The notes under the pieces were generated by a model. It was not told where the DNA came from, searched no databases, and worked only from the letters and a program-made list of their open reading frames with translations. DNA of 64,000 nt from an uncultured Candidatus Saccharibacteria bacterium. GTDB lineage: Bacteria; Patescibacteriota; Minisyncoccia; Phycocordibacterales; UBA5272. The position numbers and the translations under genes were made by a program. The stretch is taken from the NCBI GenBank assembly GCA_964517625.1, contig CAZFBW010000003.1:46107-110106 (forward strand), given 5' to 3'. Shown piece by piece: positions 6,101 to 64,000 of the stretch (the stretch's first letter is position 1; every line of letters starts with the position of its first letter).

Positions 6101-6409
6101 CTCCATAAGTACAAGCATCAGCTCATGATGTACAAGTTACTTGTTGAGCATGCGCGCGATTACAGTAAGCACATCGTTACAAACGGCACACTTGAATTTG
6201 TGGAGGAAGAGACTGACGGAAAAACAAAAACACTTAGTCTTTCGTTTGATACAAAAGAAATGAAAGAAGAGATGGAAGATTTTAGACGTCTACTTTCCGT
6301 TGTCTATGAAAAAATTATGAAGCTTGATTTTCCAGATGTGTCTATGTATCCGCAAAATGTGGATGGTATTATTGCTTTTGAAAAAGATTTGCTTGAAGGA
6401 AGAGTGTAG
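3095..6409 (+). CDS. UvrD/PcrA/AddA-like SF1 helicase fused to C-terminal PD-(D/E)XK (RecB-type) nuclease
   Basis: Walker A GPGTGKT, DEFQD, VGDDDQAVYKF, ENYRST, LTSHGAKGLEF, YVALTRAR; C-terminus GKIDKV...VVDIKTG...QLMMY nuclease motifs. ATG 3095 overlaps the HD stop (ATGACTAA), so track start 3002 rejected. Confidence 0.75.
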   Translation: MTKVKQVATFEERYEALNKEQKRAVDTTEGPVMVIAGPGTGKTELISLRVGKILKNGTANANSILCLTFTETAATNMRDRLEKLIGPDAFRVAIYTFHGFCTEVMGKYPEYFYNASRMRPASELVQSEILESIFARLPHKHPLGAYHPEMGYSYLKEAQSKIKDIKKGGLTPVRFKELIEENKKTFIELNTIVAEYVPERIDKGSFVAFESLHAKLIAEGTLLARAFAGTLRLALESAGEEGKNAPLSAWKAKYTGKDEDGKRVWKDSLATEKLLALADVYQAYQNELYKRGHFDYEDMIIEVVEALKHNTILRSELEEQYQYIMVDEFQDTNNAQLSLVKAISSSGVHEGHPNVCVVGDDDQAVYKFQGAEISNILSFERLYKDVARIVLVENYRSTQEVLTFARAIVTQGVERLERLDKTIRKDLVAKNKALAQGAISIHECNTEEDEYAFVAEEVKKKLEEGEKASEIAIIAREHKQLRAILPYLDALSIPYTYVREENVFDEPHVRELIILCRFLGSTLDERFGEEGLLPEILSFPFWELDRASIWGIAEEARAKNISWLSAMRGSHDKRIVHIAEFLIELGVLAQTVPLEIILDTLIGARDMPQVTDDEHDDMYEGKEHLALASNFVSPYKEFYFGKEVYKKNPSTYINFLSSLSVFVKALREYKDGEMLKASDVGTFVDMHVDYRIPLINNTPFAHNEDAVSLLTSHGAKGLEFACVFVISANDDIWAGRAKGNKLSFPVNLPLSQTPDDEDDFIRLFYVALTRARHTLFITHHTSPFRFLLHENIPVKPVQTSVSQSELLATGLKVYHVPPFAHNEKALLKKLLDGYKLSPTHLNNFLDIVNGGPMKFLEQNLLRFPQAKTKSSVYGTAIHKALEDLYKQTKQGGKVPPLSFVVSSFEKELKRGRLIDYEEEQQKKRGEDVLTRYYKEHAKNIDAKTIVELDFSKQGIVIDGASVTGKIDKVLEREDGTWSVVDIKTGRGLDTWDEKGTAYEKIKLHKYKHQLMMYKLLVEHARDYSKHIVTNGTLEFVEEETDGKTKTLSLSFDTKEMKEEMEDFRRLLSVVYEKIMKLDFPDVSMYPQNVDGIIAFEKDLLEGRV

Positions 6410-6933: not shown

Positions 6934-7220
6934 GCGGTACTCCTTTCTTGGTTGTTTGATGTACGAATTAAGGAAAAGCGTATAAAACGAGTACGTCTTC
7001 CTACAATCTACCACGAAACTACGTTTCGTCAATAAAATAAAAAAGCTCTTCACCTGGTTGGCAAAGAGACAGTTTCAGTGAAATAACATTTCCACTAAGT
7101 GTTTCGGGATGTACGGGACCCGTCCCATCCTCGAAATACTTCCTGTGTGTGGTACTCATACAGTGTATGTAAAACAAAACAAAAGAGCAAGCATTCTCTT
7201 AATGGTATACTTTTACAACT

Positions 7221-8069
7221 ATGCCGGATAAATATACAGCCGTATGGGTGTCGCACTCTTCAATGGGAGATTTTTTGAAGTGTCCACGATTGTACTATTT
7301 GCACAACATGTACAAAGACCCAGTAACGAAACGCAAGATAAATATTGTGAGCCCGGCACTTTCTCTTGGGGTGACGGTGCACCAAGTGCTTGAAGGGTTG
7401 GGAGAATATCCTGCAGAGGAACGAATGAAGCGAGATTTACTTTCAGATTTTGAAGATGCTTGGAAGAATGTATCCGGTGAAAAAGGAGGATTTCAAACTG
7501 AAGAAGAGGAAAATGAATATAAAGAACGGGGTATTGCGATGCTTAACAATGTAAAAAGCGACCCACGATTTTTGGTAAACAAAAGAATCAAACTTCCTCG
7601 TGGGGAGATGAATCCAAATTTTTATATAAGCGAGGAAGACAATATTATTTTAAATGGCCAAGTGGATTGGTTAGAGTATTTGCCGGACGACACACTCCAT
7701 ATTGTTGATTTTAAAACTGGGAAAAATGAGGAGACAGATGGTTCGCTTCAGCTACCGATTTACCTTCTCTTGTGTAATGCTCTTCAGAAGCGAAAAGTGT
7801 CACGTGCGTCGTATTGGTACCTAGAAACTGACAAACTTGTAGAAAAAGAATTGCCGGACTTGGAAACTGCGCGACGAGATGTCATGGAAGTTGCACTTCG
7901 TGTAAAAGAAGCCAGAGAAAAAGGTGAATTTGTGTGTCCAAAAGGTGAAGCAGGTTGTTTTGGGTGTCGACCGTTTGAAATGATTGTGAATAAAGACCCG
8001 AAAGCAAAACATGTTGGTGTCGGCGGATTCAATCAGGATATGTATATGATTAAAAATAGTGTAGAATAG
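7221..8069 (+). CDS. PD-(D/E)XK nuclease, Cas4/RecB-family exonuclease-like with C-terminal Cys cluster
   Basis: VDWLEYLPDD..IVDFKTGK...LQLPIY motifs; Cys in KCPRLYYL plus CPKGEAGCFGC (4-Cys Fe-S pattern). Confidence 0.6.
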   Translation: MPDKYTAVWVSHSSMGDFLKCPRLYYLHNMYKDPVTKRKINIVSPALSLGVTVHQVLEGLGEYPAEERMKRDLLSDFEDAWKNVSGEKGGFQTEEEENEYKERGIAMLNNVKSDPRFLVNKRIKLPRGEMNPNFYISEEDNIILNGQVDWLEYLPDDTLHIVDFKTGKNEETDGSLQLPIYLLLCNALQKRKVSRASYWYLETDKLVEKELPDLETARRDVMEVALRVKEAREKGEFVCPKGEAGCFGCRPFEMIVNKDPKAKHVGVGGFNQDMYMIKNSVE

Positions 8070-8070
8070 T

Positions 8071-8301
8071 TTGATCATGCTTATCGATGTACGAAGCGAA
8101 GACGAATTTAATGCAGGACACAAAAAAGGTGCGGTAAATATTCCTGTGAATATTATTATGCAAGCGGCTATTCCTGTACCAAAAGATCATGCTATAGAAT
8201 TGTATTGTCGGTCTGGTAGTCGTGCGAAAATGGCGCAACTTATTTTAAAACATCGAGGGTTTACCAATGTTTCGCTTTTGGATGACACGGGGGCGCTATA
8301 A
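8071..8301 (+). CDS. Single-domain rhodanese-like sulfurtransferase
   Basis: IDVRSEDEF..GH..GAVNIP......YCRSGSRA...L...GF.NV, active-site Cys loop. Confidence 0.7.
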   Translation: MIMLIDVRSEDEFNAGHKKGAVNIPVNIIMQAAIPVPKDHAIELYCRSGSRAKMAQLILKHRGFTNVSLLDDTGAL

Positions 8302-8391
8302 AAAGCGCTTGTGGGTTACTTTCTCTCTACGGCTTTTTATGGGTATATACTTAGATATGGTGAGTTTTACTTATTAGTTTAACTATATTGT

Positions 8392-8919
8392 ATGGAAATA
8401 CATCCATCGCATTCTAATGTTACGCGTTTCTTTTTTTATGACACAAGATCAGCATGGCTCTGGCTTGTGATGCGTGTTTGGCTTGGGTATGAATGGTTTA
8501 TTGCTGGTTGGGAAAAGGTTACCAATCCAGCTGGGGTCTGGGTCGGCGACAAAGCGGGTACAGCAATCACAGGGTTCTTAAAGGGAGCACTTGCAAAAAT
8601 GGGAGGAGAACATCCAAATGTGTCTGACACATACGGATGGTTTATAGAGCATGTTGCACTTCCGAATGCTACCGTGTTTTCATACATGGTTGCATATGGT
8701 GAAATACTCGTCGGACTTGGCCTTATTCTTGGTCTTGTTACTGGTGTTGCGGCATTCTTCGGCACCCTTATGAACTTCAACTTCTTGTTTGCTGGCACAG
8801 TAAGCTCGAATCCATATCTTCTTCTCGTTGGACTTATGATTATGCTCGGCTGGCGTGTGGCAGGATGGTGGGGATTGGACAGGTTTGCACTTCCAAAACT
8901 GAAAAAGTATATAGAGTAG
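8392..8919 (+). CDS. DoxX-family integral membrane protein
   Basis: RVWLGYEWFIAGWEKV N-terminal motif and 4 TM layout resemble DoxX/DoxD. Confidence 0.45.
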   Translation: MEIHPSHSNVTRFFFYDTRSAWLWLVMRVWLGYEWFIAGWEKVTNPAGVWVGDKAGTAITGFLKGALAKMGGEHPNVSDTYGWFIEHVALPNATVFSYMVAYGEILVGLGLILGLVTGVAAFFGTLMNFNFLFAGTVSSNPYLLLVGLMIMLGWRVAGWWGLDRFALPKLKKYIE

Positions 8920-8929
8920 TTAGTTTTGT

Positions 8930-8964
8930 AAAAAAAAGACCGCAACAGAGTTGCGGTTTTTTTG
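8930..8964. terminator. Bidirectional terminator (A7GACCGCAAC-agag-GTTGCGGTT7)
   Basis: Stem with symmetric A/T runs between convergent genes. Confidence 0.75.
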
Positions 8965-8979
8965 AATGACGCCGAAGCG

Positions 8980-9516
8980 TTATTCGAGAACAAACCCTCG
9001 AGCAATACTTCCCTTAGGGATGTGGAATTCATATCTTTGGCTAACAGGGCTCTTACCAAAGAATTTGTACCACTCCTCGGCGTATTCCAGGCGAAAGATC
9101 CTAAGTTCGCCATCCTTACGAGCTTCTTCGAAGATGGTGATCTCGCTTTCGGACCCCGCGAGATTATTCGGGTTAAGTAGTTCTTTCTTGAAACCACCAC
9201 CTCGTTCCTCACGGTAGTAGGTGTAGTACGACGAACTCGAGAACCCACCACTTCCGAGGAAAAAACTACCACTGGTACCCGCTTGATCTCGCATGTTTAC
9301 GAGCTTGACCGAAGTGTACTCTTTTGACCACTTTTTCGGCAGGTTCTCGTTGCCAACGATGCCAAGCATTAAGGCAATCATTGCGCCGAAAAAAGCGCAG
9401 ACACCCACCACAAGAAAGCCTCCCCCTAAGCCCACGGTATTTTTTCTGACGAAGTAGAGTCCGACGAGAATTCCCACGAAGGCGAGGGTCAAGACGGTGT
9501 AAACGAACGGATACAT
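8980..9516 (-). CDS. Hypothetical membrane protein (2 TM + Gly/Ser/Tyr-rich segment + soluble domain)
   Basis: Long ORF, hydrophobic N-terminus; GC-richer. Confidence 0.5.
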   Translation of the reverse strand: MYPFVYTVLTLAFVGILVGLYFVRKNTVGLGGGFLVVGVCAFFGAMIALMLGIVGNENLPKKWSKEYTSVKLVNMRDQAGTSGSFFLGSGGFSSSSYYTYYREERGGGFKKELLNPNNLAGSESEITIFEEARKDGELRIFRLEYAEEWYKFFGKSPVSQRYEFHIPKGSIARGFVLE

Positions 9517-9673
9517 AGAACCTCCTAGTGAAGTTTGAGGGCTTTTACGAAGGACAGAATCAGTGTTCGTTATACGTTATTATTACATAAATGTCAAGAT
9601 TATTTTGATTAGCAGTGCTTTGTTATGATGTGTGCAAAAAGTGGTGTACTGTATACTTAGTCTTTAATTATAT

Positions 9674-10189
9674 ATGTCTGTAAAAACGAAAAAAGTAATA
9701 GTGAACGATAGAATGCAAAAAGGGTATTCGTATGTACTTACGCAACCTGTCGGGAAAAACTTTGACCCACTTTTTCGTCCGGACTTAACACCAAAAGAAA
9801 TGCTCGCGCTCGGTGTGTTTGGTGGAAAGTATATGACAGACTGCACAAAAGAATTTCCTGTCTCGTGGTTTACAAAAGCAAAATTTTCTCCGAATCAGAA
9901 AGACCCGAAATTAAATTTTTTCAAAGTAGATGCAAGCCAACCGTTGTCTGTTTGGAAAGAAAAAGGATGGATATATAAAGATGACCCACGAGGATGGTTT
10001 CAATGGTATTGTCGGTATTACATGGGAAGACGAATTCCAAAAGAAGATGAACGGCAGATAAAAAGGTGGCGTGCAATGGTGCGTCACGTGATACAGATAC
10101 GAAACAAGTGTCGTATGGGTGACGCGTCATGCAACACGCGCCAGCGTCAAGCGCTTCTCCATTGGGCGTACGATTCCAGGAGAATATAA
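9674..10189 (+). CDS. Conserved hypothetical protein (Trp/Arg-rich; GWFQWYCRYYMGRR...DERQIKRW)
   Basis: 171-aa ORF; motif not assignable to a family from memory. Confidence 0.5.
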   Translation: MSVKTKKVIVNDRMQKGYSYVLTQPVGKNFDPLFRPDLTPKEMLALGVFGGKYMTDCTKEFPVSWFTKAKFSPNQKDPKLNFFKVDASQPLSVWKEKGWIYKDDPRGWFQWYCRYYMGRRIPKEDERQIKRWRAMVRHVIQIRNKCRMGDASCNTRQRQALLHWAYDSRRI

Positions 10190-12144: not shown

Positions 12145-12216
12145 TCCGCGATAGCTCAGCGGTAGAGCAGTTCCCTGTTAAGGAATTGGTCGTAGGTTCG
12201 ATCCCTACTCGCGGAG
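12145..12216 (+). tRNA. tRNA-Asn (anticodon GTT)
   Basis: Hand-folded cloverleaf: acceptor TCCGCGA/TCGCGGA, D-arm GCTC-AGCGGTA-GAGC, anticodon stem GTTCC/GGAAT with loop CTGTTAA, T-arm GTAGG-TTCGATC-CCTAC; CCA not encoded. Confidence 0.85.
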
Positions 12217-14615: not shown

Positions 14616-15373
14616 GTTGAAGAATCAACAACAACCACTAGACTTCCGGCAAAAGGCGTCGGTTCTCGTTGTTTCAGGAGGACCCACTTGGCTTTTTCAT
14701 TCTTTTCGTATTCGGCATCAAGGATGCCGTAGTAGTCCAAGAAGTGATTGAATTTCGCCGAGATACGAATGCATCCTTGTGAGTCTTGCTTGCCGAGGCG
14801 TTTCTCTCCATGTTCTGGATCAGTAGCGTGGACGAGGAGCCGGATATTGAAATCTTCACCCTTGCGGGTTTTTGTTTTTTGCCAACCCAAGTCCCAGACA
14901 CGACTTCCTTTAGCGCCTAATCCCCGCCAACCTTTGTCATTTTTCGTACCAAGCGCGCGATAACTCGGATTGTTCACTGTGTTTTTAAATGCGCCGACGG
15001 GGGTTTCAAATGAACCGAGTCGTGAGGCTTTTCCTGTTGATGTTTTGCCTGTGCCAAGGATGAGCACATTGCGCAGTGTTGCATCAAAAAATGCGAGCGA
15101 AACTGTCTGTGAGTTCGGGTTCTTGTCGACGAGCAGAAACAGTTGCGATGAAGCCGGCATGGTTTCCAGTGAGCGAGTCATAACGAGAAGTGAAGAGCTG
15201 GCAAGTGTGCGCTCATATTCCTCGCGAATCTGTATTCCGTCAACGGTTTGCGAGAACACCTGCTTCAAACGAAGCACTTCTTCTTTTACATTTGTTGCCG
15301 ATGCGCTTGTTGCTGCAAGTAGGCACAAACAAAGAAGAATAATAATCAACCATATTTTCTTAGCGTTATTCAA
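14612..15373 (-). CDS. L,D-transpeptidase (YkuD domain) with signal peptide
   Basis: LLVHATDPEHGEKRLGKQDSQGCIRIS (HxxxxxxxSxGCIR catalytic motif); TTG start with AAGGAGG RBS. Confidence 0.7.
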   Translation of the reverse strand: MNNAKKIWLIIILLCLCLLAATSASATNVKEEVLRLKQVFSQTVDGIQIREEYERTLASSSLLVMTRSLETMPASSQLFLLVDKNPNSQTVSLAFFDATLRNVLILGTGKTSTGKASRLGSFETPVGAFKNTVNNPSYRALGTKNDKGWRGLGAKGSRVWDLGWQKTKTRKGEDFNIRLLVHATDPEHGEKRLGKQDSQGCIRISAKFNHFLDYYGILDAEYEKNEKAKWVLLKQREPTPFAGSLVVVVDSST

Positions 15374-15493
15374 GCATCCTCCTTATTTAATGTACGCGCT
15401 ATTAGAAAGGGTATCATATTTGGAAAAACAGCGATACGTGGAGTAGACTACAAAAAGCCAATTTTCTAGAAACCAAAACCCATAGGTGAGGAC

Positions 15494-16129
15494 ATGAAAA
15501 GACGTTCTTTCATTCTACTTTTGCCAATCTTATATTCCAGTTCAGTGTTTGCATCTAGGCTAAGTCTCTTAGGATCAAAAGCTTCGCAAAGGAGGCAGAA
15601 TGAAATTGCGGATGCCGAGGATCTTTCGCGTATTGAGAATGATGAGCAACTCGAGCGCTTCAAGCGCGCAAAGCTTCTTGTTCCAATTCCAAAGGAAATT
15701 TTAGTTGACGAAAGGTTGGAGACCGAACCACGCTTGAAGCAGAAGTTCCGCTTTGATCCTAAATTTCGATTCGTCCGTCCGTGGACAGCGAATTTCCTCG
15801 AGGAGATGAACAAGGCGTTTATGGAAGAGTTCAAGCATCCGCTTCAAGTGAATTCTGCGGTGCGTACTAGGGTGTATCAGGAATTGCTTCGCACAGTAAA
15901 CGGCAACGCCGCTACAACTGAAGGCGATGAAGCATCTTCGCATTTGACGGGGGCAACCATCGATATCGCCAAGTTGAAGATGCGCGAAGTTGAAATGTGG
16001 TGGATGCGCAGACAACTTCTTCACCTTGAAGGTCGCGGTTTCATTGAGGCGACGGAAGAAAATCACCAAGCCGTCTTCCACATCATGGTCTTTAAAAAGT
16101 GGGCGTATCCAAAGTCCAAAGAAGAATGA
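15494..16129 (+). CDS. Secreted LAS-type metallopeptidase, peptidase M15 (D-Ala-D-Ala carboxypeptidase-like)
   Basis: SSHLTGATIDIA (SxHxxGxAxD) and EENH motifs; signal peptide. Confidence 0.5.
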   Translation: MKRRSFILLLPILYSSSVFASRLSLLGSKASQRRQNEIADAEDLSRIENDEQLERFKRAKLLVPIPKEILVDERLETEPRLKQKFRFDPKFRFVRPWTANFLEEMNKAFMEEFKHPLQVNSAVRTRVYQELLRTVNGNAATTEGDEASSHLTGATIDIAKLKMREVEMWWMRRQLLHLEGRGFIEATEENHQAVFHIMVFKKWAYPKSKEE

Positions 16130-16169
16130 TTCCCACCGAAAGCAGAGCTTTCGGTGGGTTTTGTTTTTT
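16124..16169 (+). terminator. Repeat-family terminator: GAATGATTCCCACCGAAAGC-aga-GCTTTCGGTGGG + T-run
   Basis: Perfect 12-bp stem; 21-nt 5' part identical to the copy at 17051; embeds the M15 gene's TGA stop. Confidence 0.75.
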
Positions 16170-16235
16170 GACAGAGACAAACATTTACTGTAGTTTTAAT
16201 TCGGATAAGCACTTTTATTACTGGAGGCACAGACA

Positions 16236-17045
16236 ATGAAACCATTTTTTCTTTTAGGCGCCGATGATCCAGAAATGAAGAAAATTCAATCGCTTCTTGA
16301 GCAACACTGCTTTCCGTTCGTGCACGCAACGCACAAAGGAAAACGCTGTCATCCTGGTAATGCCTATCAAGCGGATCCGATATCGGTTGCCGAAGAAGTC
16401 TTCCACCTTGTTATTATCGAATGTGAGCCCGTGAATCTCTTGCACTATTCGAAATTCACGAGGATTGATCATCACCGTCCTTTTGATCCAGGTTTTCATA
16501 TGGGTTCCGACCAGTACTGGGAAGCATCAAGTATCGGACAGCTTCACAAGTTTTTTGGTTGGGATGACTCCCACGAAGCAAGAGTGATGGCGGCATTTGA
16601 TCACTGCTTTCCTGCAGCAGTTCAAGGAAGGTGCCTTGGCGTATCGGGGGAGGAGGTTCTGGCGATGAAGATTAAAAGCATTGTCGAAAATACCGGGCGC
16701 TCGGAAAAAGAAGTGTACGAAAAAATTTCTTTTTTTAGAAGAGCGATACTCGATGCAACAGAAGAAAAAATAGGAAGCTCGCATGTCAGGGATCTGCGCA
16801 CCCACTACCTTGGCGAAGGATATTCCGCTGATCTTCTGTCTGCACAGGTTGCTGCAACGATTGAAAATCGTCCAGTGTTGCTCCGTCACCGAGACTCTCT
16901 CAGCGAACCGGAAAAGATTTCCATCTCCGGTCCTGTTGACGAAACAACGGCTCACGCCTTCAAGGAAGTCTGGGGCCCCGCACAGGGACTTGTCCGTCTG
17001 TATGGAGTTCCCGCTCGCGGTTATGCGGGAGGGTACGTGAAATAG
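16236..17045 (+). CDS. Hypothetical protein (269 aa), GC-richer; contains DHH-like tripeptide (IDHHRP)
   Basis: Long ORF, no confident family assignment. Confidence 0.45.
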   Translation: MKPFFLLGADDPEMKKIQSLLEQHCFPFVHATHKGKRCHPGNAYQADPISVAEEVFHLVIIECEPVNLLHYSKFTRIDHHRPFDPGFHMGSDQYWEASSIGQLHKFFGWDDSHEARVMAAFDHCFPAAVQGRCLGVSGEEVLAMKIKSIVENTGRSEKEVYEKISFFRRAILDATEEKIGSSHVRDLRTHYLGEGYSADLLSAQVAATIENRPVLLRHRDSLSEPEKISISGPVDETTAHAFKEVWGPAQGLVRLYGVPARGYAGGYVK

Positions 17046-53790: not shown

Positions 53791-54612
53791 GTGTATATGA
53801 AAGGTAAGATTCCACAAAATCAAAAACCAGCGATTAATAATCATAAACCCACAGAAACTTCGTGGGGCAATGTCGCATCGTGGTACGATACGCACTTAGA
53901 AAAAACCGGGGACACGTATCATGAAAAAGTGGTGTATCCTAATCTCGCGCGCTTGCTTGGTGATGTAAAAGGCAAACATGTGCTTGATCTCGCGTGTGGG
54001 CAGGGCCAGTTTTCACGATTACTTGCAGAGGCAGGGGCATCCGTCATTGGTGTTGATGTAGGGAAGGCCCTACTTGATATTGCAGAAAAGAAAAATAAAC
54101 CCTACAAGTTTAAAATTTTTTATTACAACACGGCGTCTCATGATTTGTATATGATTAAAGATGGTACACAAGACATTGTTGTTTGTGTGCTTGCGCTTCA
54201 AAATATTGAAAACTTACAGGAAACCTTGAAAGAAGTTTCGCGTGTGCTTGCAAAAGACGGAACATTTGTATGTGTGCTCAACCACCCAAGCTTCCGTATT
54301 CCACGCGGAAGCGGTTGGGGATACAACGAGCACGAACAAGTGCAGTATCGTCGCATCGAAAGTTATCTTTCAGAAGCAAAAGTAAAAATTGACATGACAC
54401 CAGGAAGCACAACGGATAAAAAATTTACGTACTCATTTCATCGTCCGCTTCAGGTGTATGTAAAGGCCTTTGCAAAAAACCACCTCGCAATCACTCGTCT
54501 TGAAGAGTGGGAATCGCACCGTAAAAGTGAAAAGGGGCCAAAGCAAAAAGTGGAAGATAAAGCACGAAAAGAAATTCCGTTGTTTATGTGTATTGAGTGT
54601 AGAAAGATATAA
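53791..54612 (+). CDS. Class I SAM-dependent methyltransferase
   Basis: VLDLACGQGQFS motif I; VIGVDV; DIVVC. Confidence 0.65.
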   Translation: MYMKGKIPQNQKPAINNHKPTETSWGNVASWYDTHLEKTGDTYHEKVVYPNLARLLGDVKGKHVLDLACGQGQFSRLLAEAGASVIGVDVGKALLDIAEKKNKPYKFKIFYYNTASHDLYMIKDGTQDIVVCVLALQNIENLQETLKEVSRVLAKDGTFVCVLNHPSFRIPRGSGWGYNEHEQVQYRRIESYLSEAKVKIDMTPGSTTDKKFTYSFHRPLQVYVKAFAKNHLAITRLEEWESHRKSEKGPKQKVEDKARKEIPLFMCIECRKI

Positions 54613-54654
54613 AGTAAAAAGAGCGATGCCTATCGCATCGCTCCCAACTATTTG

Positions 54655-55077
54655 TTAGTCTTTAAACCACACCCTTGTGGGTGGGATAACGAGAGTGTCA
54701 CTACCCACCAATTTAATGAGGTCTTTGGAAAAAACACGAATATTTCCCTGAATTGAATTCGGGTACCACCAAGATATTAATTTATCGATTTTTTCTGGAC
54801 GCATTCCCACAACAACCGTAGAGTATGTCCTGCTTGAACCGAACCCAATTTCTCTGAACTCAACTAGCTTAGAGTCGCCTTCGAGTTGAGAATCATTGCC
54901 CCAATCTATTTCATTAGGGCAAAACCCACCAACATTTTTGTGAGGAGGAATTGGCATTTCTTTAAACAAGTGGTCCCAATCTGGTGTAAGCATGACTTCC
55001 CAAAGAAATTTTACTGCCAATGAAATATTTCTCGGGAGCTTGCTTTTTGTGTATCCAGGTTTTACGACTGACAGCAT
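54655..55077 (-). CDS. Hypothetical protein (140 aa), paralog A (WDHLF motif family)
   Basis: GGAGG RBS; conserved 5'UTR TTTACGGAGG shared with paralog B. Confidence 0.5.
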   Translation of the reverse strand: MLSVVKPGYTKSKLPRNISLAVKFLWEVMLTPDWDHLFKEMPIPPHKNVGGFCPNEIDWGNDSQLEGDSKLVEFREIGFGSSRTYSTVVVGMRPEKIDKLISWWYPNSIQGNIRVFSKDLIKLVGSDTLVIPPTRVWFKD

Positions 55078-55185
55078 ATAAACCTCCGTAAAGGACAGTT
55101 ACATCACAACGCGTAAAGCGTATAGATGACACACCAGGATTGGTGTGTCATTGTACACTACAAATAAAAAAGATATATGTCAAAA

Positions 55186-55220
55186 ATAAAAGGGCGATGT
55201 TGTAGACATCGCCCCTTTCG
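55186..55220 (-). terminator. Terminator hairpin AAAGGGCGATG-ttgtaga-CATCGCCCCTTT
   Basis: Downstream of paralog B on minus strand, followed by a U-run. Confidence 0.65.
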
Positions 55221-55223
55221 TTA

Positions 55224-55631
55224 TCATTCCACTTTTTCTTCCACTTTTGTTGCTTCCACCAAAAGGCGACGAGTATTGTATTCTTGTGCGAGCTGTTTGT
55301 TGTGCACGACCAGGTCCATCTTGATGGAGCTGGGGTTCCAAAAATCAAAACCGACGATTGGTTCTTTGCGCACCCCAATGGTGACTATTGACCCAGTTTT
55401 CTTTTCAAGAAACATCACTACCTCAGTGTCGCCTTCGCAAATTTCTCCCAACCCCTCGATGACTACATTCGGACGAAATGAAAGCATGTTAGGGAGAAGA
55501 GGGCACGGAAACAAGTGATCCCACATATTGGTGTGAAAGACCTGTGCCAAGAATTCCTCTGCATGTACCACCGCAGGAGATTTCTCGGTTTTGGTGAGAC
55601 TTCCTTTTTTCTTGGTGTTGGAACGGGGCAT
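55224..55631 (-). CDS. Hypothetical protein (135 aa), paralog B (WDHLF motif family)
   Basis: Alignable with 54655 product over ~90 aa. Confidence 0.5.
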   Translation of the reverse strand: MPRSNTKKKGSLTKTEKSPAVVHAEEFLAQVFHTNMWDHLFPCPLLPNMLSFRPNVVIEGLGEICEGDTEVVMFLEKKTGSIVTIGVRKEPIVGFDFWNPSSIKMDLVVHNKQLAQEYNTRRLLVEATKVEEKVE

Positions 55632-55788
55632 GGAATACCTCCGTAAAGAACGGTTGATATTTAGGCATCTACTAATGTTGAATTCTGTAGTATTTGTATC
55701 ATATTGTCAATAAATGTTTTTTATGTTTTCTTGATTCCCCAACTAGTGAAAGTTAGGTTTTTGTGCGACATGATATAATAAAGCGCAT

Positions 55789-56445
55789 ATGAAATTATTG
55801 CCAAAATCATTAGATACCCCACAGATGAAGCTTGTGTTTGGATTAGTAGCCGTTATTGTGCTTGTGCTCGCATATTATTTTTATGTAACAAGTAAGGGTG
55901 TAGTTGAAACAACACCCGCAATAGAAGTAACACAGACTGATCATGTTCGTGGAAATCAAACCGCAAAAGTAACCTTGATTGAATTCGCGGATTTCCAATG
56001 TCCGGCATGTGCTGCATACGAAGGTCTTGTTCAAAAAGTGCTTGCTGATAATGCACAAGACGTGAAGCTTGTTTTCCGTCATTTCCCACTCATTCAGATT
56101 CACCCAAATGCACTTCTTGCTGCTAAAGCATCTGAAGCTGCTGCTCTTCAAGGAAAGTTTTGGGAAATGCACGACATGTTGTATGCAAAGCAACAAGAGT
56201 GGTCAAGTTCTGCAAGCGCTAAGGCGCTCATGGTTGGATACGCTTCTTTACTTAACCTAAGTGTAAAACAATTTGAAGCGGATCTTACAAGCGAAGCAGT
56301 AGAGAAAAAAATTATGGCGGAATATCAAGAAGCGATGCGTTTGAAAGTACCAGGTACACCAACCTTTTTCTTAAACGGCAAAATGATTGAAAGTCCTCGT
56401 TCTCCAGAAGAATTTACAAAATTAATTCAAGAAGCAGCAAAATAA
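55789..56445 (+). CDS. DsbA-family thiol:disulfide oxidoreductase, membrane-anchored
   Basis: FADFQCPACAAY CxxC thioredoxin motif; N-terminal TM. Confidence 0.7.
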   Translation: MKLLPKSLDTPQMKLVFGLVAVIVLVLAYYFYVTSKGVVETTPAIEVTQTDHVRGNQTAKVTLIEFADFQCPACAAYEGLVQKVLADNAQDVKLVFRHFPLIQIHPNALLAAKASEAAALQGKFWEMHDMLYAKQQEWSSSASAKALMVGYASLLNLSVKQFEADLTSEAVEKKIMAEYQEAMRLKVPGTPTFFLNGKMIESPRSPEEFTKLIQEAAK

Positions 56446-56591
56446 CATGTTCAAAGATTTTTTTATCAAGCAAGTCGACGACCGTTGAGGGAGGAAGATG
56501 TCGTAAGCCAGTAGGCGTCGACCAGTAAAACAAAGATAATTTAACCACCAAAATAAAAATAACATGTTCAAAGATTTTTTTATCAAGCAAG
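56439..56591 (+). repeat. Two 36-nt direct repeats (56439-56474 and 56556-56591), each carrying RBS + ATG + first 9 codons of the 56564 gene; copy 1 is followed by a 48-nt insert (56475-56522) bounded by TCGACG/CGTCGA
   Basis: Copy 1 encodes the 13-codon uORF MFKDFFIKQVDDR*; the insert holds GGGAGGaagATGtcgTAA. Confidence 0.7.
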
Positions 56592-56791
56592 CAGTAAAAT
56601 ATGGTTCAAAAAATTTGCCGAAAGATCAGCAAGAAATGCTTCAGCACGCCGTAGAAAAAGATCCAAAACTTTTTGAAAAAATTGCAAAGGAAATTGATGT
56701 ACTCAAAAAGCAGGGAAAGCCAGAAATGTATGCAAGTCTGGATGTGATGAAGAAGTATCAGAAGGAACTTCAAGAATTGTTTAAAAAGTAA
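56564..56791 (+). CDS. Small K/E-rich hypothetical protein (75 aa)
   Basis: ORF after repeat copy 2. Confidence 0.45.
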   Translation: MFKDFFIKQAVKYGSKNLPKDQQEMLQHAVEKDPKLFEKIAKEIDVLKKQGKPEMYASLDVMKKYQKELQELFKK

Positions 56792-58620: not shown

Positions 58621-58656
58621 AAAGCAGCGCCCCAAAGCGCTGCTTTTTCTTTATTT
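58621..58656 (+). terminator. Terminator (AAAGCAGCGC-cccaaa-GCGCTGCTTT + T-run)
   Basis: Perfect 10-bp stem after pepA. Confidence 0.75.
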
Positions 58657-58733
58657 TGATGGAGAGTGTCATTGTGCTAGCATGTAGGGCAGTGTTTTAG
58701 TTCATTTTATTCACAACCAGAAAAGGATTCTAT

Positions 58734-59546
58734 ATGGCTACTAAGCCCTTAATAGATGTGCGTACTGAAGCAGAAACTCGAGCAAAATTTATTCTCGATG
58801 AAGGTATTGATCTTGTCCAGCGTCGTTTGTATGCTGGTGCAAAGTCAGCGGAACACAACCCTGACTTTGATGTTGGCTTCATGTTGGCCAGAGACATAGC
58901 GACAGGACTCCACACTCTTCAAACACAGTTCAGGCCCAACAAAGCTATGAACGAAGACGAGAATAAACCGATTGAGATTTTTCTCTCCACTTTTGGTGGC
59001 GACCTCTATAGCGCTTTCGGTATCTATGATTTGCTTCGTGTGTCACCAGTACCAATTCATGTGTATGTATTCGGTCAGTGCATGAGTGCTGGTACTGTCA
59101 TCATGCAAGGAGCGGAGAAACGTTTTGTTTCAAAATCTTCGCGTCTTATGATTCACTATGGCTCCACGACGGATGAAGGGACGTCTAACCCCGTTCGTGT
59201 GGATGAGGTTTGGAAGGAACACCGCGAGATCATGGACCAATTGGTTGAAATTTACATGACTCGTTGTAATAAAGAGTTTCTTGCGGAGAGACGAGCAAAG
59301 AAGGTTCTGGAAGAGTTTTCAAAAGGTTGGCCCATGAGCAACAGAAAGAAGAAACAATACATGCAAAATTACAATGTTGAAGCGTTAGCAGAAGAGGCGC
59401 TTCGCAAAGATATTCTTCCTATTGAATCATATTTTGTCGCTAAAAGATTCGTTGAACTCGGACTTGCTGACGAAATCGTTACAAAATCACCGCCGAAGAA
59501 AGATCCGTTTGCACCGATAGTTGCGGATGAGGGTTCTTCTGGTTGA
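58734..59546 (+). CDS. ClpP-like serine peptidase (S14 family), stand-alone
   Basis: IFLSTFGGDLYSAFGIYD; Ser in GQCMSAG; His in RLMIHYG; LGLADEIV near C-terminus; no clpX/tig context. Confidence 0.6.
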   Translation: MATKPLIDVRTEAETRAKFILDEGIDLVQRRLYAGAKSAEHNPDFDVGFMLARDIATGLHTLQTQFRPNKAMNEDENKPIEIFLSTFGGDLYSAFGIYDLLRVSPVPIHVYVFGQCMSAGTVIMQGAEKRFVSKSSRLMIHYGSTTDEGTSNPVRVDEVWKEHREIMDQLVEIYMTRCNKEFLAERRAKKVLEEFSKGWPMSNRKKKQYMQNYNVEALAEEALRKDILPIESYFVAKRFVELGLADEIVTKSPPKKDPFAPIVADEGSSG

Positions 59547-59567
59547 TGAATACTGTTAATACAATCA

Positions 59568-59600
59568 AACCCCGAGTGGAAACTCGGGGTTTTTTCTTTT
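59568..59600 (+). terminator. Terminator (AAACCCCGAGT-ggaa-ACTCGGGGTTT + T-run)
   Basis: Perfect stem. Confidence 0.75.
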
Positions 59601-59602
59601 AT

Positions 59603-59630
59603 ATTTCGCCACAAAAAATCTTTTTTGTCA
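59603..59630 (+). promoter_or_regulatory. Conserved upstream motif ATTTCGCCACA-N11-TTGTCA (copy A, upstream of 59714)
   Basis: Same motif and spacing recurs at 60909-60936. Confidence 0.35.
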
Positions 59631-59713
59631 CATTGTTTTTTACTCACCATACTTGGTAGACTGCTAGTCAGTGTTTACTTTTAGCCCTTTAATAAAATCA
59701 AGGAGTAGAAACC

Positions 59714-60301
59714 ATGGCTGGAACCGTCTATCTGTTCGGCCCGGTCACGGGTCTGACGTTCGAGAAAGCCGATGCTTGGCGAAAACGCGCTAAGAAAGTA
59801 CTGAAACCTTATGGTATCAAATGTATTGATCCGATGCGTAGCCTCAAGTTCCTCAAGAAAGATGGTCCTATTTCAGGGACGGGTCGTGAGTATAAAGACG
59901 AACTTGCAAAGCCCGCTGCGGTTGTTATGCAGAACCTTCGTGCTGTGGAAAAGTGCGACATCATGGTTGGTAACCTGCAAGGTGCTACCCGGGTTTCCAT
60001 TGGTTCAGTTGCTGAACTTTCATGGGCTTTCATTAAACAAAAAATGGTGATGGCGATGGTTGATGAGAAAGAAGGTAATCCTCACGATCACATGCATGTC
60101 AACCATATGATTCACGTCAAAGTGAATACGTTTGATGCTCTGATGAATGCAGTCATCAAAGAGCTTGGCGATCCACCCAAACATAGTGACAAGAAGAAGC
60201 TGAAGAGGGCCCTCAAGAAATCTGAAAAGAAAGTGAAGAGAGCTTTCAAGAAAGAACTCAAGAAGGCAATCAAGAAGCTCAACAAAAAGCACCGGAGATA
60301 A
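59714..60301 (+). CDS. DUF4406 / nucleoside 2-deoxyribosyltransferase-like protein with Lys-rich C-terminal tail
   Basis: AAGGAG RBS; VYLFGPVTGLTF...IDPMRS...CDIMVGNLQGATRVSIGSVAELSWA; tail KKKLKRALKKSEKKVKRAFKKELKKAIKKLNKKHRR. Confidence 0.5.
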   Translation: MAGTVYLFGPVTGLTFEKADAWRKRAKKVLKPYGIKCIDPMRSLKFLKKDGPISGTGREYKDELAKPAAVVMQNLRAVEKCDIMVGNLQGATRVSIGSVAELSWAFIKQKMVMAMVDEKEGNPHDHMHVNHMIHVKVNTFDALMNAVIKELGDPPKHSDKKKLKRALKKSEKKVKRAFKKELKKAIKKLNKKHRR

Positions 60302-60303
60302 CC

Positions 60304-60858
60304 ATGCCCTATCTCACAGGTTTTCGAAAAGATGAAATGCGAAAAGGGGATTATTCAAAAGTTGCGGGTGACTTGAACTATGCTTTAACAACAGTCATCA
60401 TTCAGTATCTCGTACGGAAGAAACTTCGGTACCAGACATTGAATGACATTGTTGCCGCACTTTTGTTGGCGACTGATGAGTTTCAAGAACGCGTGCGTCA
60501 ACCCCTTCAGTTTTTTCCCGGTATCGTCCAAGATGCAATATACACAGTACTTTTTGCTTTCATTGAAATATGGAAAAAGAAAGAGTTATTGTATCGAAGG
60601 TGGGAAGAACCCGAAACTCCGCACGAACTTCGTCACGTGTTCACGATGTTGATTTATCGATACTTGGCGGACAATGGTGTGTCTGATCAGACTGTTTGTG
60701 ATGTGCGAGGTGCGCTTGATCTCGCCAACAAAGAGTTCTGCAGACGCATCGTGTATCCGTACGAAGATCGTGCCATTATAAAAAATGGAGACGTCTATCC
60801 GGAATCGTTGTTGTCACAGGTTCGCCCCATCAGCGAATCAACGAGAGACTCACAATAG
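60304..60858 (+). CDS. Hypothetical protein (184 aa)
   Basis: Starts 2 nt after the upstream stop. Confidence 0.45.
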   Translation: MPYLTGFRKDEMRKGDYSKVAGDLNYALTTVIIQYLVRKKLRYQTLNDIVAALLLATDEFQERVRQPLQFFPGIVQDAIYTVLFAFIEIWKKKELLYRRWEEPETPHELRHVFTMLIYRYLADNGVSDQTVCDVRGALDLANKEFCRRIVYPYEDRAIIKNGDVYPESLLSQVRPISESTRDSQ

Positions 60859-60880
60859 GCATCCTTGATACGATAGAAAT

Positions 60881-60911
60881 AAGCCCCATTCCCGGGGCTT
60901 TTCTTTTTATT
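60881..60911 (+). terminator. Terminator (AGCCCC-attccc-GGGGCT + T-run)
   Basis: 6-bp GC stem + TTTCTTTTTATTT. Confidence 0.6.
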
Positions 60912-60936
60912 TCGCCACATAATTTTCATATTGTCA
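60909..60936 (+). promoter_or_regulatory. Conserved upstream motif ATTTCGCCACA-N11-TTGTCA (copy B, upstream of giant ORF)
   Basis: Matches copy A in sequence and spacing. Confidence 0.35.
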
Positions 60937-61034
60937 TCACTGTTTTGTTTGTACATAACCTGATAGAATAATCACAGTTTGAATTAGTTCTTTGACACCA
61001 ATCCACCAATTACACAAAGGAAAGGATTCCCATC

Positions 61035-64000
61035 ATGAAAGAGAAAATTAAAAGCTCTCTTGAACGACGACGGTATGTTGCTAATCACATCAACGAAACA
61101 TCAAGCTCACTTGCCAAAAAACTTGGTATTAGTAAGCGTATGGTTGCTGTGTATAAAAAGGAAATTAGGGCTGGAATAACTGGACACAAGGATCGTACCA
61201 AAAAAGGTCTTGAGCGGAGATTTTTCATCCTGAAAAATCTTAACAAGACATCGCTTTGGCTTGCTGACAAACTCGGCATCAGCGTTCGCGCTGTCGATAT
61301 GATCAAAAAGGAAATTGAGGCAGGACGTGTTACGTTGGAGGACGCTAAACAACACGCCAGTGGCACTAATATCGTTACACCACTCTTCCCAGACTGGTTG
61401 ACGGAAATTGTGGAACGCAAGATGCGACTGAAACGTCCGCCGATGAGCCTCAGTGCTTTGCACAAACAGGTCGTCGCAGCGCTTCCGAAACATCTTAAAG
61501 AACATGCTCATGAAGTAACCAAGAAGAATATTCTCAATGAATTCGAGAATCTTTTCTGGAAAGGTCGTGATCCGATTGTTCGGGATGCGCTTCGTGCTGG
61601 CTTCACGCCGGAGAAATTGCACGAGATTCTGAGCAAACACTCAAATGATCGCGCGATTCCTCCAAAATGGGTCGTGAAGACGAAGTACGAGCACATGAAA
61701 GGGCTCTCACGGGCGCCGCGTGAAAAAGAAGTTGCCAGTTTGCGTGGCATTCTCCGTGTACCGCTTGGAGATGCACCTGCGCACTCACTTCTCTCGACTT
61801 CATTTAAGAAACCGTTCCACGCTTTGTCGGAGAGTACTAAAGATCAGTTTCGTATTGGTCTCATTTCGGCCCCGCAACTTGGTCTTCCGTATGATCCGGA
61901 CATCGAACTAAACCTGACTCGTTGTGGCTTCGCCGCAGCGCGGAAGGATAATTGCGATGCGCTTGTCATTTCCGGTGGGCTGTTCCGCATTACTTGGCAG
62001 AAGACATCCGGTCCTAACCGGTTGCTCAATGACCTCGCGATGGGAACCGAAATCGATATCGAAGAGATTGCTGTTTCGTATCGTGATCGTATGAACGAAA
62101 TTATTGAGTCGGGTTCATTTGAGCCTATCTACATCACCGCGAGAGAAGGATTCATCAATCGCTTGCGTGGCTGGTACAAGGTAACTCAGCGTCCCGATGG
62201 GACACCTGAGTTCAATAAACCTGTCTACGTGGTGCTTTCGCCGGCTGATCTTGGACTTGCTCGCCGTATGGCCTACTTTGAACTGCTCGCTTTGCAAAAC
62301 AAGGAGCTGGGAGAAGCTAGGGCAGCGCTGAGCTTGTATAGCAAAGTTCTTGCGAAAGCAAGTGAAGCTCTCATGAACATCAAACACGATGGCACCGAGG
62401 AAGAAATTAGCTTGGCAGAAAAAGCACACACTTCGGCTGAACAAGCCGCTGCGCGTGCAGCTGAGCAAGTGGCTCGTGTACAGATGACGCACCTCGATTC
62501 GAAGCAGAACATCAGGGTGTACAATCAAGCCCTTTCTTACTTGCTTCACGAGATCGATAAGAATATTCCGGGTTGGCAGGTGATCGACCAAAACTCGGCA
62601 TATGTTATTTTCGGTAAGAGCAAGCACGTTGTCAGGTTCGTTTCTGGTGGCGACACCAACAATCCGTATTACGACGAGCTCGGAAGTTACGGGCCGGCGC
62701 AACGGAGAGAAGAGTTGCCTGCACTTACGATTGTTTCTCATCCGCGCGCAATTTATCCGCGCAAGACCACGCGAGAGAATTATATCGATGGGTCTATGGA
62801 AGGAACAGCATCGTTTGCGGAAGCGCCGATGCTTGTCGATAAGGCTGCAATTCTTGAACGTACTGACGGCAACAAAGTTCCTCTCCCGGTCGTTAAGGCT
62901 GTAGGGGACGCAATGTTCAACGGGGGCATGACGATTATCAAGATTGATCCCGATTTTGGGGTTTCTCCTGATTTCATCAACTGTGAAGCAGTGCGTCGCA
63001 TTGCTTCTCCTGGTGGTCGTCCTGTGCTTCCGCCTGTGAAGCGTTTGTGGCTTATGATTGCAACCGATCTACACTTCGGGGGTTCGATGCGGGTTTTTAT
63101 CAATCGTCCCTCTGGATTGCAAATTGGTCTCACGGAAGCCGTTTTTGAACTCATGCAGAAGTGGGGACTTGATGCAAATGGAGTTGCGCCCGTCGCTGGA
63201 ATGTTTGTGTGTGATGACATCACGCACGGCAATCACTTCGGAACGCATGTGCGCCCGCATTATGGTGTGCGTCCGTATGCTCAAGTCGTAAAGGAGTTCG
63301 AGAACGATCTGAAGAATTTGCCGAAAGACGCTGAGGGTCGTGAGAAGAAGTTGAAAGAAATGGTTAAACATGGCGTCAATCAAATCAGGTACCGGCCTCC
63401 GGATTACCTGACTGGTCAGTTCCAGGAACTTTTTCACGGATTGATTCGACCGTTCTCAGATGTCTTCAAAGGCATTCTGCTTGCTGCGAAGCAGGCGGGT
63501 GTTGTCGTCAAAGGTGTCAGCGATTATGCCGGCACTGAAAGCGACACGCGTGATCTTGGAATCATTAGTTGGGGTTCTGGTAACCACGCTACGAAGACAA
63601 CTGATGGCATGCTTCACGAGGGCATCATCGTTGCGGAAACGCTTCGGATGCGCTTGTGGAGTGACCCAGACCTTGTAGGCCTTAATCTGGATCGTCTGAT
63701 CAGCTCTCCGTTGTATCAGGATACGGGTATTGCCTACGGTACGCTCAAAGTCGGCAACGGCTACGAGTGGGGCATTCACGTTTCCGGTACTCCGCCCAAG
63801 CGTGACAGTTGGAAAGATACTGTGCACGGCTGGGTACAAGTGAACCGTTCGCGTGGTAATCCGTCGAGCATCTTGAACGGAAAAGACGGGAAAGCGATTC
63901 TCCACATGACTGGTGACAAACACTTCTTCGCAGGAGCATTTGCGGGGAATGATGTCTATGTTATGGGGCCGTCATCGACGCATACGGACAGCTATGCAGA
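61035..64000 (+). CDS. Giant multidomain protein, 3'-truncated by window end (>=988 codons): N-terminal tandem HTH-like repeats, later metallophosphoesterase-like motifs
   Basis: Codon-by-codon check from ATG 61035 to 64000 found no stop; in-frame TGA at 60993. Repeats LAKKLGISKRMVAVYKKEIRAG / LADKLGISVRAVDMIKKEIEAG; ATDLHFGG, CDDITHGNHF, SGNHA, GDKHF. Not in the supplied ORF track. Confidence 0.6.
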   Translation, partial: MKEKIKSSLERRRYVANHINETSSSLAKKLGISKRMVAVYKKEIRAGITGHKDRTKKGLERRFFILKNLNKTSLWLADKLGISVRAVDMIKKEIEAGRVTLEDAKQHASGTNIVTPLFPDWLTEIVERKMRLKRPPMSLSALHKQVVAALPKHLKEHAHEVTKKNILNEFENLFWKGRDPIVRDALRAGFTPEKLHEILSKHSNDRAIPPKWVVKTKYEHMKGLSRAPREKEVASLRGILRVPLGDAPAHSLLSTSFKKPFHALSESTKDQFRIGLISAPQLGLPYDPDIELNLTRCGFAAARKDNCDALVISGGLFRITWQKTSGPNRLLNDLAMGTEIDIEEIAVSYRDRMNEIIESGSFEPIYITAREGFINRLRGWYKVTQRPDGTPEFNKPVYVVLSPADLGLARRMAYFELLALQNKELGEARAALSLYSKVLAKASEALMNIKHDGTEEEISLAEKAHTSAEQAAARAAEQVARVQMTHLDSKQNIRVYNQALSYLLHEIDKNIPGWQVIDQNSAYVIFGKSKHVVRFVSGGDTNNPYYDELGSYGPAQRREELPALTIVSHPRAIYPRKTTRENYIDGSMEGTASFAEAPMLVDKAAILERTDGNKVPLPVVKAVGDAMFNGGMTIIKIDPDFGVSPDFINCEAVRRIASPGGRPVLPPVKRLWLMIATDLHFGGSMRVFINRPSGLQIGLTEAVFELMQKWGLDANGVAPVAGMFVCDDITHGNHFGTHVRPHYGVRPYAQVVKEFENDLKNLPKDAEGREKKLKEMVKHGVNQIRYRPPDYLTGQFQELFHGLIRPFSDVFKGILLAAKQAGVVVKGVSDYAGTESDTRDLGIISWGSGNHATKTTDGMLHEGIIVAETLRMRLWSDPDLVGLNLDRLISSPLYQDTGIAYGTLKVGNGYEWGIHVSGTPPKRDSWKDTVHGWVQVNRSRGNPSSILNGKDGKAILHMTGDKHFFAGAFAGNDVYVMGPSSTHTDSYA

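Follow-up and report, generated by a model that had tools for sequence, protein, structure and literature searches.

The right end of a 64,000-nucleotide stretch from an uncultured Candidatus Saccharibacteria bacterium (assembly GCA_964517625.1, contig CAZFBW010000003.1, positions 46,107 to 110,106; hereafter the window) carries five plus-strand genes from 56.9 kb onwards, four of them encoding products of 558, 270, 195 and 184 amino acids and the last an open frame, the beginning of a giant gene. With slightly more than even confidence, we read this end as an ordinary chromosomal stretch of a Patescibacteria/Parcubacteria genome of the Candidate Phyla Radiation (CPR), comprising three units set side by side in this lineage, with a shared promoter architecture and a putative role in nucleic-acid breakdown and deoxynucleoside salvage. 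The first unit would be the giant protein, a cytoplasmic phosphoesterase of 1049 residues and predicted metal-dependent nuclease, to which two helix-turn-helix (HTH)-like repeats were added in this genome and its sister. In the second, a nucleoside 2-deoxyribosyltransferase (NDT)-like protein would remove the base from deoxynucleosides or deoxynucleotides or swap it for another, with a DUF6899 protein as accessory partner; the third would consist of a ClpP-fold protease and an M17 peptidase acting as stand-alone peptidases. The most likely function, judged from fold, motifs and neighbours only, is nucleic-acid hydrolysis by the giant enzyme which, with the NDT-like pair, would feed deoxynucleoside salvage in a scavenging organism. 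CPR bacteria are generally known to lack de novo nucleotide synthesis, and the proposed salvage role fits this background.

The giant protein and its predicted phosphoesterase domain

As the original prediction, made from the letters of the window before any database search, had stated, the frame starting at 61035 remains open on the plus strand up to 64000 (988 codons). The public protein P0001 is 100% identical to this frame and 1049 residues long, and the end of the gene is therefore placed near 64184, approximately 184 nt past the window. Six minus-strand open reading frames of at least 100 residues lie inside the frame and had been taken for antisense shadows; this is upheld, because the plus frame belongs to a conserved protein family. 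A full HMMER profile scan gave 144 family clusters at 50% identity, most of 900–1280 residues, and the named members belong to Azambacteria, Zambryskibacteria, Parcubacteria, Patescibacteria and one 'Saccharibacteria' metagenome-assembled genome (MAG). A profile search from a 48-sequence alignment recovered the same 14 proteins, and seeding with distant members added 31. The closest relative found was P0002 (68–70% identical), encoded on L001/L002, the locus of the sister genome. Homologues at 62–64% identity, from MAGs labelled Patescibacteria, 'bacterium' and Saccharibacteria, are devoid of the first ~110 residues and have different neighbours. No relative was found in IMG/VR, and no real match to the giant protein in Pfam (also negative for 48 family members), NCBIfam, PHROGs or PADLOC; profile searches against the PDB with the 14- and 48-sequence alignments returned noise only. 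Neither a signal peptide nor a transmembrane segment was detected in the protein. The family is CPR-wide and annotated in no database, and together with its membrane partner (see below) represents the novel item of this locus.

Modelling with AlphaFold2 on 14 close homologues gave an unusable result (pLDDT 61), and on 43 diverse sequences a model with pLDDT 86.1 and pTM 0.80. In the latter, the C-terminal domain (residues 666–1049) is predicted to adopt the two-sheet beta-sandwich of phosphoesterases. The top 11 Foldseek matches in the PDB all possess the metallophosphoesterase fold (DP1, Rv0805, purple acid phosphatase), with LpxH lower in the ranking, and matches in BFVD were phage DP1-like phosphoesterases. 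The fold-comparison figure was highest for the PolD DP1 exonuclease (17.1, with 245 residues aligned), followed by the MJ0936 phosphodiesterase (14.3), the B-subunits of polymerases delta, alpha and epsilon (12.5–13.6), YfcE (13.2) and Mre11/SbcD (10.3–12.7).

The DxH, GNH and GDxH-like phosphoesterase motifs read from the sequence by the original prediction proved to be real and conserved across homologues, and they follow one another in the canonical order of metallophosphoesterase motifs. No substitution occurs at D678, H680, D728, G849, H851 or H963 in the alignments of 48 and of 43 sequences, nor, in the latter, at D727, G960, D961 or K962, and N850 is conserved in at least 90% of sequences. 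Motif I is the expected D-x-H (D678/H680, encoded at 63066–63074). At the site of motif II, correctly spaced from motif I, an acidic pair D727-D728 occurs within C/N-D-D-x-x-[QH]-G-N-H and not within G-D-x-x-D-R. Motif III has the form G-S-G-N-H, followed by A/F instead of D/E. Where the superfamily has G-H-x-H, the last motif is an invariant G960-D961-K962-H963, in which the Asp replacing the first His is a plausible metal ligand. The Pfam metallophosphoesterase model PF00149 matched neither P0001 nor any of 48 family members. Based on fold and motifs, residues 666–1049 are probably an active two-metal phosphoesterase of the DP1/Mre11 structural branch, with a full complement of predicted metal-binding and catalytic residues. 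Since the PolD DP1 exonuclease and Mre11/SbcD are the enzymes that this domain resembles most in shape, nucleic acid is the predicted substrate of the giant protein, which would hydrolyse it as a metal-dependent nuclease or phosphodiesterase.

The family adds a new architecture to an already known superfamily of enzymes. Its likeness to DP1, the archaeal 3'-5' proofreading exonuclease, and to the inactivated B-subunits of eukaryotic polymerases alpha, delta and epsilon is structural only. There is no detectable sequence similarity to DP1; the giant protein is more than twice as long and has a helical N-terminal domain, a coiled-coil hairpin and a helical insert, and the root-mean-square deviation of 7.9 Å means that the domain arrangement differs. 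No gene for a DP2-like or family-B polymerase subunit was found within 6–10 kb on either side in 10 loci, and the host is a CPR bacterium, not an archaeon. Mre11/SbcD, calcineurin-like enzymes detected by PF00149, differ in the motif II and last-motif signatures given above (C/N-D-D and G-D-K-H), and none of the 10 loci has a Rad50/SbcC or SMC-type gene next to the giant gene.

Upstream of the phosphoesterase domain, the middle of the protein is conserved across the family. The N-terminal extension consists of two direct repeats of ~40 residues (LERRRYV..LAKKLGISKRMV..KKEIRAG and LERRFFI..LADKLGISVRAV..KKEIEAG); the two HTH-like repeats predicted earlier are thus seen in the translation and are modelled as three-helix units (pLDDT around 80–89), with a weak match to an HTH family (E 0.084). 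Another candidate feature was rejected: residues 255–665 (RIGLISAPQLG...DALVISGGLF) were considered as a degenerate second phosphoesterase domain, and hhalign of the N-terminal against the C-terminal part found nothing. The match to a phage metallophosphoesterase bearing on such a tandem arrangement was insignificant (probability 0.2%).

Neighbouring genes and shared promoter features

Partners of the giant gene were sought by all-against-all comparison of the flanks of 10 distinct loci. Its neighbours are housekeeping genes: ribosomal proteins, mraZ-rsmH-PBP (PBP, penicillin-binding protein), IMPDH, def-fmt, PCMT and Lon. The division and cell wall (dcw) genes mraZ-rsmH-PBP lie within 10 kb of it in the window, L001, L008 and L032. 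In six of the 10 loci it is directly adjoined by a gene for a multi-pass membrane protein with one to three QNxxYSxxSRAGNR modules (the SRAGNR protein), for which Pfam gave no real match; in the genome studied here this gene should lie just past the right edge of the window. A soluble family of ~198 residues (YFAHPVN...ENPNQPHHQEGY...CDGxVALPFLDGRMGLGVAGE), with no match in Pfam, is encoded up to four genes downstream in five loci. It aligns in register with NDT-like proteins, weakly (hhalign E 0.006, probability 6%), which is suggestive, at most, of an NDT fold. L003 holds two adjacent paralogues of this family, 47% identical, at 15218–15817 and 15962–16480 between the giant and M17 genes. 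In the window and in L001, L003 and L006, which represent the four closest genomes, an M17 peptidase gene is found in the vicinity of the giant gene. In L008, L032 and L033 the gene for IMPDH (GMP synthesis) is found just upstream of the giant gene and that for the PCMT methyltransferase a few genes downstream, and in L009 a purine DNA glycosylase gene is located directly upstream on the opposite strand.

Within the window, the gene at 59714 had been described as DUF4406-like. An NDT/DUF4406-type protein it is; its best Pfam match, PF05014, passes the cut-off, and the DUF4406 label itself falls away, since only families of the NDT type matched down to an E of 0.1. In a weak alignment (E 0.33), the Glu of GSVAELSWA coincides with that in GTHIEIGWA of the CMP N-glycosidase 4jen. 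The Lys-rich C-terminal tail (window 60160–60301; KKKLKRALKKSEKKVKRAFKKELKKAIKKLNKKHRR) is strongly basic. The L001 orthologue has a Lys-rich tail too, and phage and metagenome NDTs have none; the tail may bind nucleic acid. The product of the gene at 60304, an unknown protein in the original prediction, is a DUF6899 (PF21840) protein, still without an assigned function, each half of which is 42–47% identical to a single-domain protein from a phage contig; DUF6899 is mentioned in no searchable paper. Both here and in L001 the DUF6899 gene starts 2 nt past the NDT-like stop, and the two form a translationally coupled, bicistronic pair, a combination that is also part of replication and nucleotide-metabolism modules of phages. 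The two gene types overlap in a viral contig, L013, and stand directly side by side in four metagenomic ones (L017, L018, L020 and L021); they seem to make up a conserved unit of two genes that does not depend on the giant gene.

In L013 (IMGVR_UViG_3300036884_000014, 7043–9712) the pair stands in a row of four genes, encoding HTH_8+Metallophos (318 residues), DUF6899 (91), NDT (132) and dGTP_diPhyd_N (189) proteins, next to a ResIII helicase and a Toprim primase. The domain types of the row are those of the window/L001 block, and in L001 a dGTP_diPhyd_N gene is situated 1.6 kb downstream of the giant gene. Elsewhere DUF6899 occurs with PNP_UDP_1 (purine/uridine phosphorylase family) and a portal gene (L016), with a KaiC/DnaB-like ATPase (L014) and, as a relative, in the glutaredoxin/DNA polymerase region of Roseobacter phage CRP-7. 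NDT (PF05014) and the dATP/dGTP diphosphohydrolase domain are nucleotide-pool enzymes of phages (bioRxiv 10.1101/2025.10.22.683976). The window resembles the nucleotide-pool modules of 2,6-diaminopurine phages described there (PF05014 with PF18909) in its NDT-like protein, and L013 and L001 resemble them in the dGTP_diPhyd_N genes just mentioned. In contrast to these modules, the window is part of a bacterial chromosome and has no PurZ, DatZ or phage polymerase; its NDT-like protein has no BLASTP-detectable similarity to the NDT of L013 and carries the extra Lys-rich tail.

The gene at 58734 encodes, as predicted, a stand-alone ClpP-like protease. It exceeds the cut-off of Pfam CLP_protease and fails the housekeeping ClpP models (NCBIfam TIGR00493, PRK), scoring 22–53 bits against cut-offs of 228–361. 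Its best PHROG is the head maturation protease PHROG 94 (5.5e-24), better than the ClpP models, and tblastn gave matches to phage ClpP and head proteases; the score for NCBIfam Clp_rel_HeadMat (NF045542; 7e-17, 61.8 bits) is below the cut-off of 120, and no NCBIfam ClpP or head-protease model reached its threshold. With ClpP (MEROPS S14) and phage prohead proteases it shares the ClpP fold, with Ser (GQCMSAG) and His (LMIHYG) aligned to the catalytic residues. It differs in ~70 additional N-terminal residues, in an insert of ~60 residues before the C-terminal helix and around the triad Asp, where the alignment is poor and the expected position holds no Asp. No ClpX/ClpA, capsid or portal gene was found beside it. 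A 416-residue gene at 42175, considered as a ClpX partner, was rejected, being MreB.

The three terminator hairpins expected between the genes were found after the M17, ClpP-like and DUF6899 genes; the L001 counterpart of the hairpin 3' of the ClpP-like gene differs in sequence. Intact terminator, promoter and ribosome-binding sites accompany the block genes. The view that each gene forms its own unit fails for the gene at 60304, as no terminator or promoter separates it from the preceding one. The proposed element ATTTCGCCACA-N11-TTGTCA upstream of the genes at 59714 and 61035 was recovered, with exactly these two matches in the window and none in 100 shuffles. A TGTCAYYRYTGT core, supposed to lie upstream of 58734 as well, is not there, its sole exact match being at 60932. 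The first copy of the element is situated ~25 nt upstream of the extended -10 TGGTAGACT (59654–59662), a position where an activator or repressor could bind; the second is followed by the extended -10 TGATAGAAT at 60961–60969 and CACAGTT at 60973–60979. All three intergenic regions contain an extended -10, followed in two by CAGTGTTT and in the third by the CACAGTT just given. TAGNNT-N6-CAGTGTTT has exact matches only at 58678 (ClpP-like) and 59657 (NDT-like), and a further site at 15531 requires one mismatch, at which stringency 0.43 matches are expected.

The three intergenic regions are conserved in L001, and the two bearing the element rank first among nine compared (identities 0.89 and 0.84, versus 0.67–0.77), in contrast to synonymous sites, which are near saturation between the window and L001. 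In IMG/VR the element has five matches, about the chance level that we estimate for its information content. The shared promoter features point to co-regulation of the transcription units of the block: the element would co-regulate two of them, possibly through the HTH-like repeats of the giant protein, which are proposed as its binder because element and repeats co-occur in the same two genomes, the one support for this proposal. Coordinates are collected in Table 1.

Table 1. Genes, domains and putative regulatory elements at the right end of the window, and related genes in other loci
Feature	Position	Strand	Identity to L001	Remarks
M17 (leucyl-aminopeptidase family) peptidase, 558 aa	56919..58595	+	60%	Pfam Peptidase_M17 1.7e-70
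Terminator-like hairpin after M17 gene	58621..58646	+		10-bp stem, 6 GC pairs, T tract
Promoter-like element of ClpP-like gene	58675..58697	+		extended -10 TGCTAGCAT, then CAGTGTTT; kept in L001
Stand-alone ClpP-fold serine protease, 270 aa	58734..59546	+	80-81%	Pfam CLP_protease 1.1e-15, 58.5 bits (cut-off 20.2)
Terminator-like hairpin after ClpP-like gene	59567..59592	+		11-bp stem, 6 GC pairs
ATTTCGCCACA-N11-TTGTCA, copy 1	59603..59630	+		kept in L001 at 8455-8482
NDT-like protein, 195 aa	59714..60301	+	45-47%	PF05014 1.1e-7, 32.4 bits (cut-off 28.8); PF15891 1.4e-5
Two tandem DUF6899 domains, 184 aa	60304..60858	+	41-47%	PF21840 1.6e-17, 64.3 bits (cut-off 27), two copies
Terminator-like hairpin after DUF6899 gene	60881..60900	+		
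ATTTCGCCACA-N11-TTGTCA, copy 2	60909..60936	+		kept in L001 at 9875-9902
Giant protein: N-terminal extension, two HTH-like repeats (aa 1-110)	61035..61364	+	68-70% (giant protein)	this genome and sister only; absent from 932-943-aa homologues
Giant protein: middle (aa 111-665)	61365..63029	+		helical domain, alpha/beta region, coiled-coil hairpin (aa 403-510), beta-rich region (DSSP of model)
Giant protein: predicted C-terminal metallophosphoesterase-fold domain (aa 666-1049)	63030..64000	+		window edge cuts at aa 988
SRAGNR membrane protein	L001:13248-14627; L004:12912-14054; L006:3401-4588; L009:13439-13966; L011:12946-13488; L034:9196-10533	-; -; +; -; +; -		
YFAHPVN family	L008:13197-13793; L032:9224-9826; L033:9741-10331; L003:15218-15817 and 15962-16480; L004:14261-14860			
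Adjacent NDT-type/DUF6899 genes	L017:3031-3692; L018:139-782; L020:1011-1651; L021:1795-2525			

Alternative readings of the right end

Several observations weigh against the reading of the right end as a chromosomal nuclease and salvage locus. No sequence method ties the giant protein to a known family, and the assignment of its enzyme class draws solely on fold and motifs; its nuclease substrate is conjectural, as nucleotides, lipids and phosphoproteins are further substrates of metallophosphoesterases. Weak, too, is the assignment of the HTH repeats (the E value above is for Pfam HTH_11), which gave no match in the PDB. The combination of a metallophosphoesterase with neighbouring DUF6899/NDT genes was seen in just two independent settings, and homology between the two phosphoesterases is not detectable. 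The gene found most often beside the giant gene encodes a multi-pass membrane protein, which would suit an envelope or transport role as well as a nuclease. Furthermore, the flanking core proteins are 82–94% identical to those of L001 and the block proteins far less, and the block and the segment from the methyltransferase gene to DsbA stand in opposite order in the two genomes. Given this divergence and changed order, some exchange among relatives or unusually fast evolution of the block is possible; as synonymous sites are saturated, fast evolution and allele exchange are not separated.

Another possible explanation, unlikely in our view and still deserving consideration, is that the giant phosphoesterase acts at the membrane or envelope, on a lipid-linked or polymer phosphodiester or with a transporter, and that its adjacency to the NDT-like pair is coincidental. 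The SRAGNR protein next to the gene in six of 10 loci and the proximity of mraZ-rsmH-PBP in four would fit such a role. However, the protein has no signal peptide or transmembrane segment, its top fold matches are by a clear margin DNA enzymes (DP1, polymerase B-subunits, Mre11), HTH-like repeats were gained in this lineage, and the other recurrent neighbours are IMPDH, the purine DNA glycosylase and the possible NDT-fold protein.

A bolder proposal, which we regard as distinctly improbable, is that the giant protein founds a CPR-specific class of DP1/Mre11-like two-metal nucleases on a scaffold of ~1000 residues which, with the SRAGNR membrane protein and NDT-fold enzymes, takes up or degrades foreign DNA and turns it into deoxynucleosides, and whose HTH-like repeats may control its own and the NDT/DUF6899 promoters via ATTTCGCCACA-N11-TTGTCA. 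If true, this machine would be a dedicated nucleotide-scavenging system for bacteria unable to make nucleotides.

The original prediction favoured an undescribed acquired system, and the corresponding explanation, that of a single island gained by horizontal transfer, or of an undescribed defence or mobile system, starting at 56.9 kb (or 58.7 kb) with four cooperating products, now appears very doubtful. The right end is indeed GC-richer: the window has ~42% GC overall, with 0.451, 0.447 and 0.508 in the 2-kb bins across 58–64 kb (45–51%) and ~0.39–0.43 elsewhere. The rise does not begin at 58.7 kb, as had been thought, its true left edge being one gene earlier at the M17 peptidase gene (GC 0.489). 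GC at third codon positions is 0.508 for the M17, 0.41 for the ClpP-like, 0.51 for the NDT-like, 0.45 for the DUF6899 and 0.51 for the giant gene, against a core mean of 0.374 (standard deviation, 0.063), an excess of ~2 standard deviations for the M17, NDT-like and giant genes that would suit an import. However, in each of the four genomes measured, no other gene of the locus is as GC-rich as the giant gene (0.498, 0.504, 0.593 and 0.577, in genomes of 42%, 45%, 52% and 54% GC), and the excess is therefore a property of the gene, not a foreign signature or a sign of recent import.

The divergence of the block from L001, its changed position relative to the methyltransferase–DsbA segment, the common promoter elements with the co-regulation they suggest, and the NDT-like/DUF6899 pair and ClpP-fold protease, both typical of phages, likewise speak for an island. 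The divergence is not unique to the block, since two hypothetical proteins outside it are equally diverged from L001 (51% and 61%). The difference in order amounts to a local rearrangement in two genomes with about 90% identity between their core proteins: the methyltransferase, small ORFs, DsbA and a 75-residue ORF are located upstream of the M17-to-giant block in the window (53791–56791) and downstream of it in L001 (16467–19454). As to the phage-like or mobile combination of genes claimed earlier, the phage relatives of the NDT-like/DUF6899 pair and the preference of the protease for phage head-maturation families bear it out in part, and capsid genes are absent.

Against acquisition, no integrase, transposase, att-like repeat or flanking tRNA was detected in the part of the block inside the window (the sole tRNA of the window, by Rfam and ARAGORN, is tRNA-Asn at 12145), and the defence models of PADLOC gave no match. 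The giant family is absent from IMG/VR and, in eight other loci, occupies housekeeping contexts without ClpP-like, NDT-like or DUF6899 neighbours. Both the ClpP-like and the giant gene are under purifying selection (dN/dS 0.10 and 0.17 between the window and L001); on foreign origin dN/dS is uninformative, because both core and block genes have reached saturation at synonymous sites. Synteny of the block extends to the sister genome, where the order is the same as in the window (mraZ-rsmH-ftsL?-PBP-M17-ClpP-like-NDT-like-DUF6899-giant). Conserved synteny in relatives, which the original prediction had named as a sign of ordinary chromosome, is thus seen in part, as the four-gene order is common only to the window and this one genome and the four genes are not together elsewhere.

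Least credible of all is a decayed prophage, with the ClpP-like protein as leftover prohead protease and the NDT-like/DUF6899 pair as leftover nucleotide module: the PHROG 94, Clp_rel_HeadMat and tblastn matches and the DUF6899 relatives beside portal, primase or helicase genes in viral contigs would suit it, but no portal, capsid, terminase or tail gene occurs in 55–64 kb, the head-protease score stays below its cut-off, each gene has its intact expression signals, and the protease, 80% identical between the two genomes at the dN/dS given above, is a maintained gene, not debris.

Implications and surroundings

Raised GC content and phage-like domains were no marker of an acquired island at this locus. 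CPR/Patescibacteria have small genomes, and much of their conserved gene set has no assigned function. A protein of ~1000 residues kept across many Parcubacteria lineages, in so streamlined a genome, is likely to be important to their biology. What is gained is a predicted enzyme class, candidate catalytic residues and two recurrent partners (the membrane protein and the possible NDT-fold protein), and with them a testable hypothesis of nucleic-acid turnover or salvage in obligate symbionts. The NDT-like/DUF6899 pair is, in addition, a conserved, translationally coupled unit common to CPR bacteria and phages.

The core genes upstream of the block encode MreB, two PBPs, a class-II aminoacyl-tRNA synthetase, MraZ, RsmH, a methyltransferase and DsbA. 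Unrelated to the block, window positions 3002–6409 encode a protein of 1135 residues in which a UvrD-type helicase is fused to a PD-(D/E)XK nuclease domain (AddA/RecB-like).

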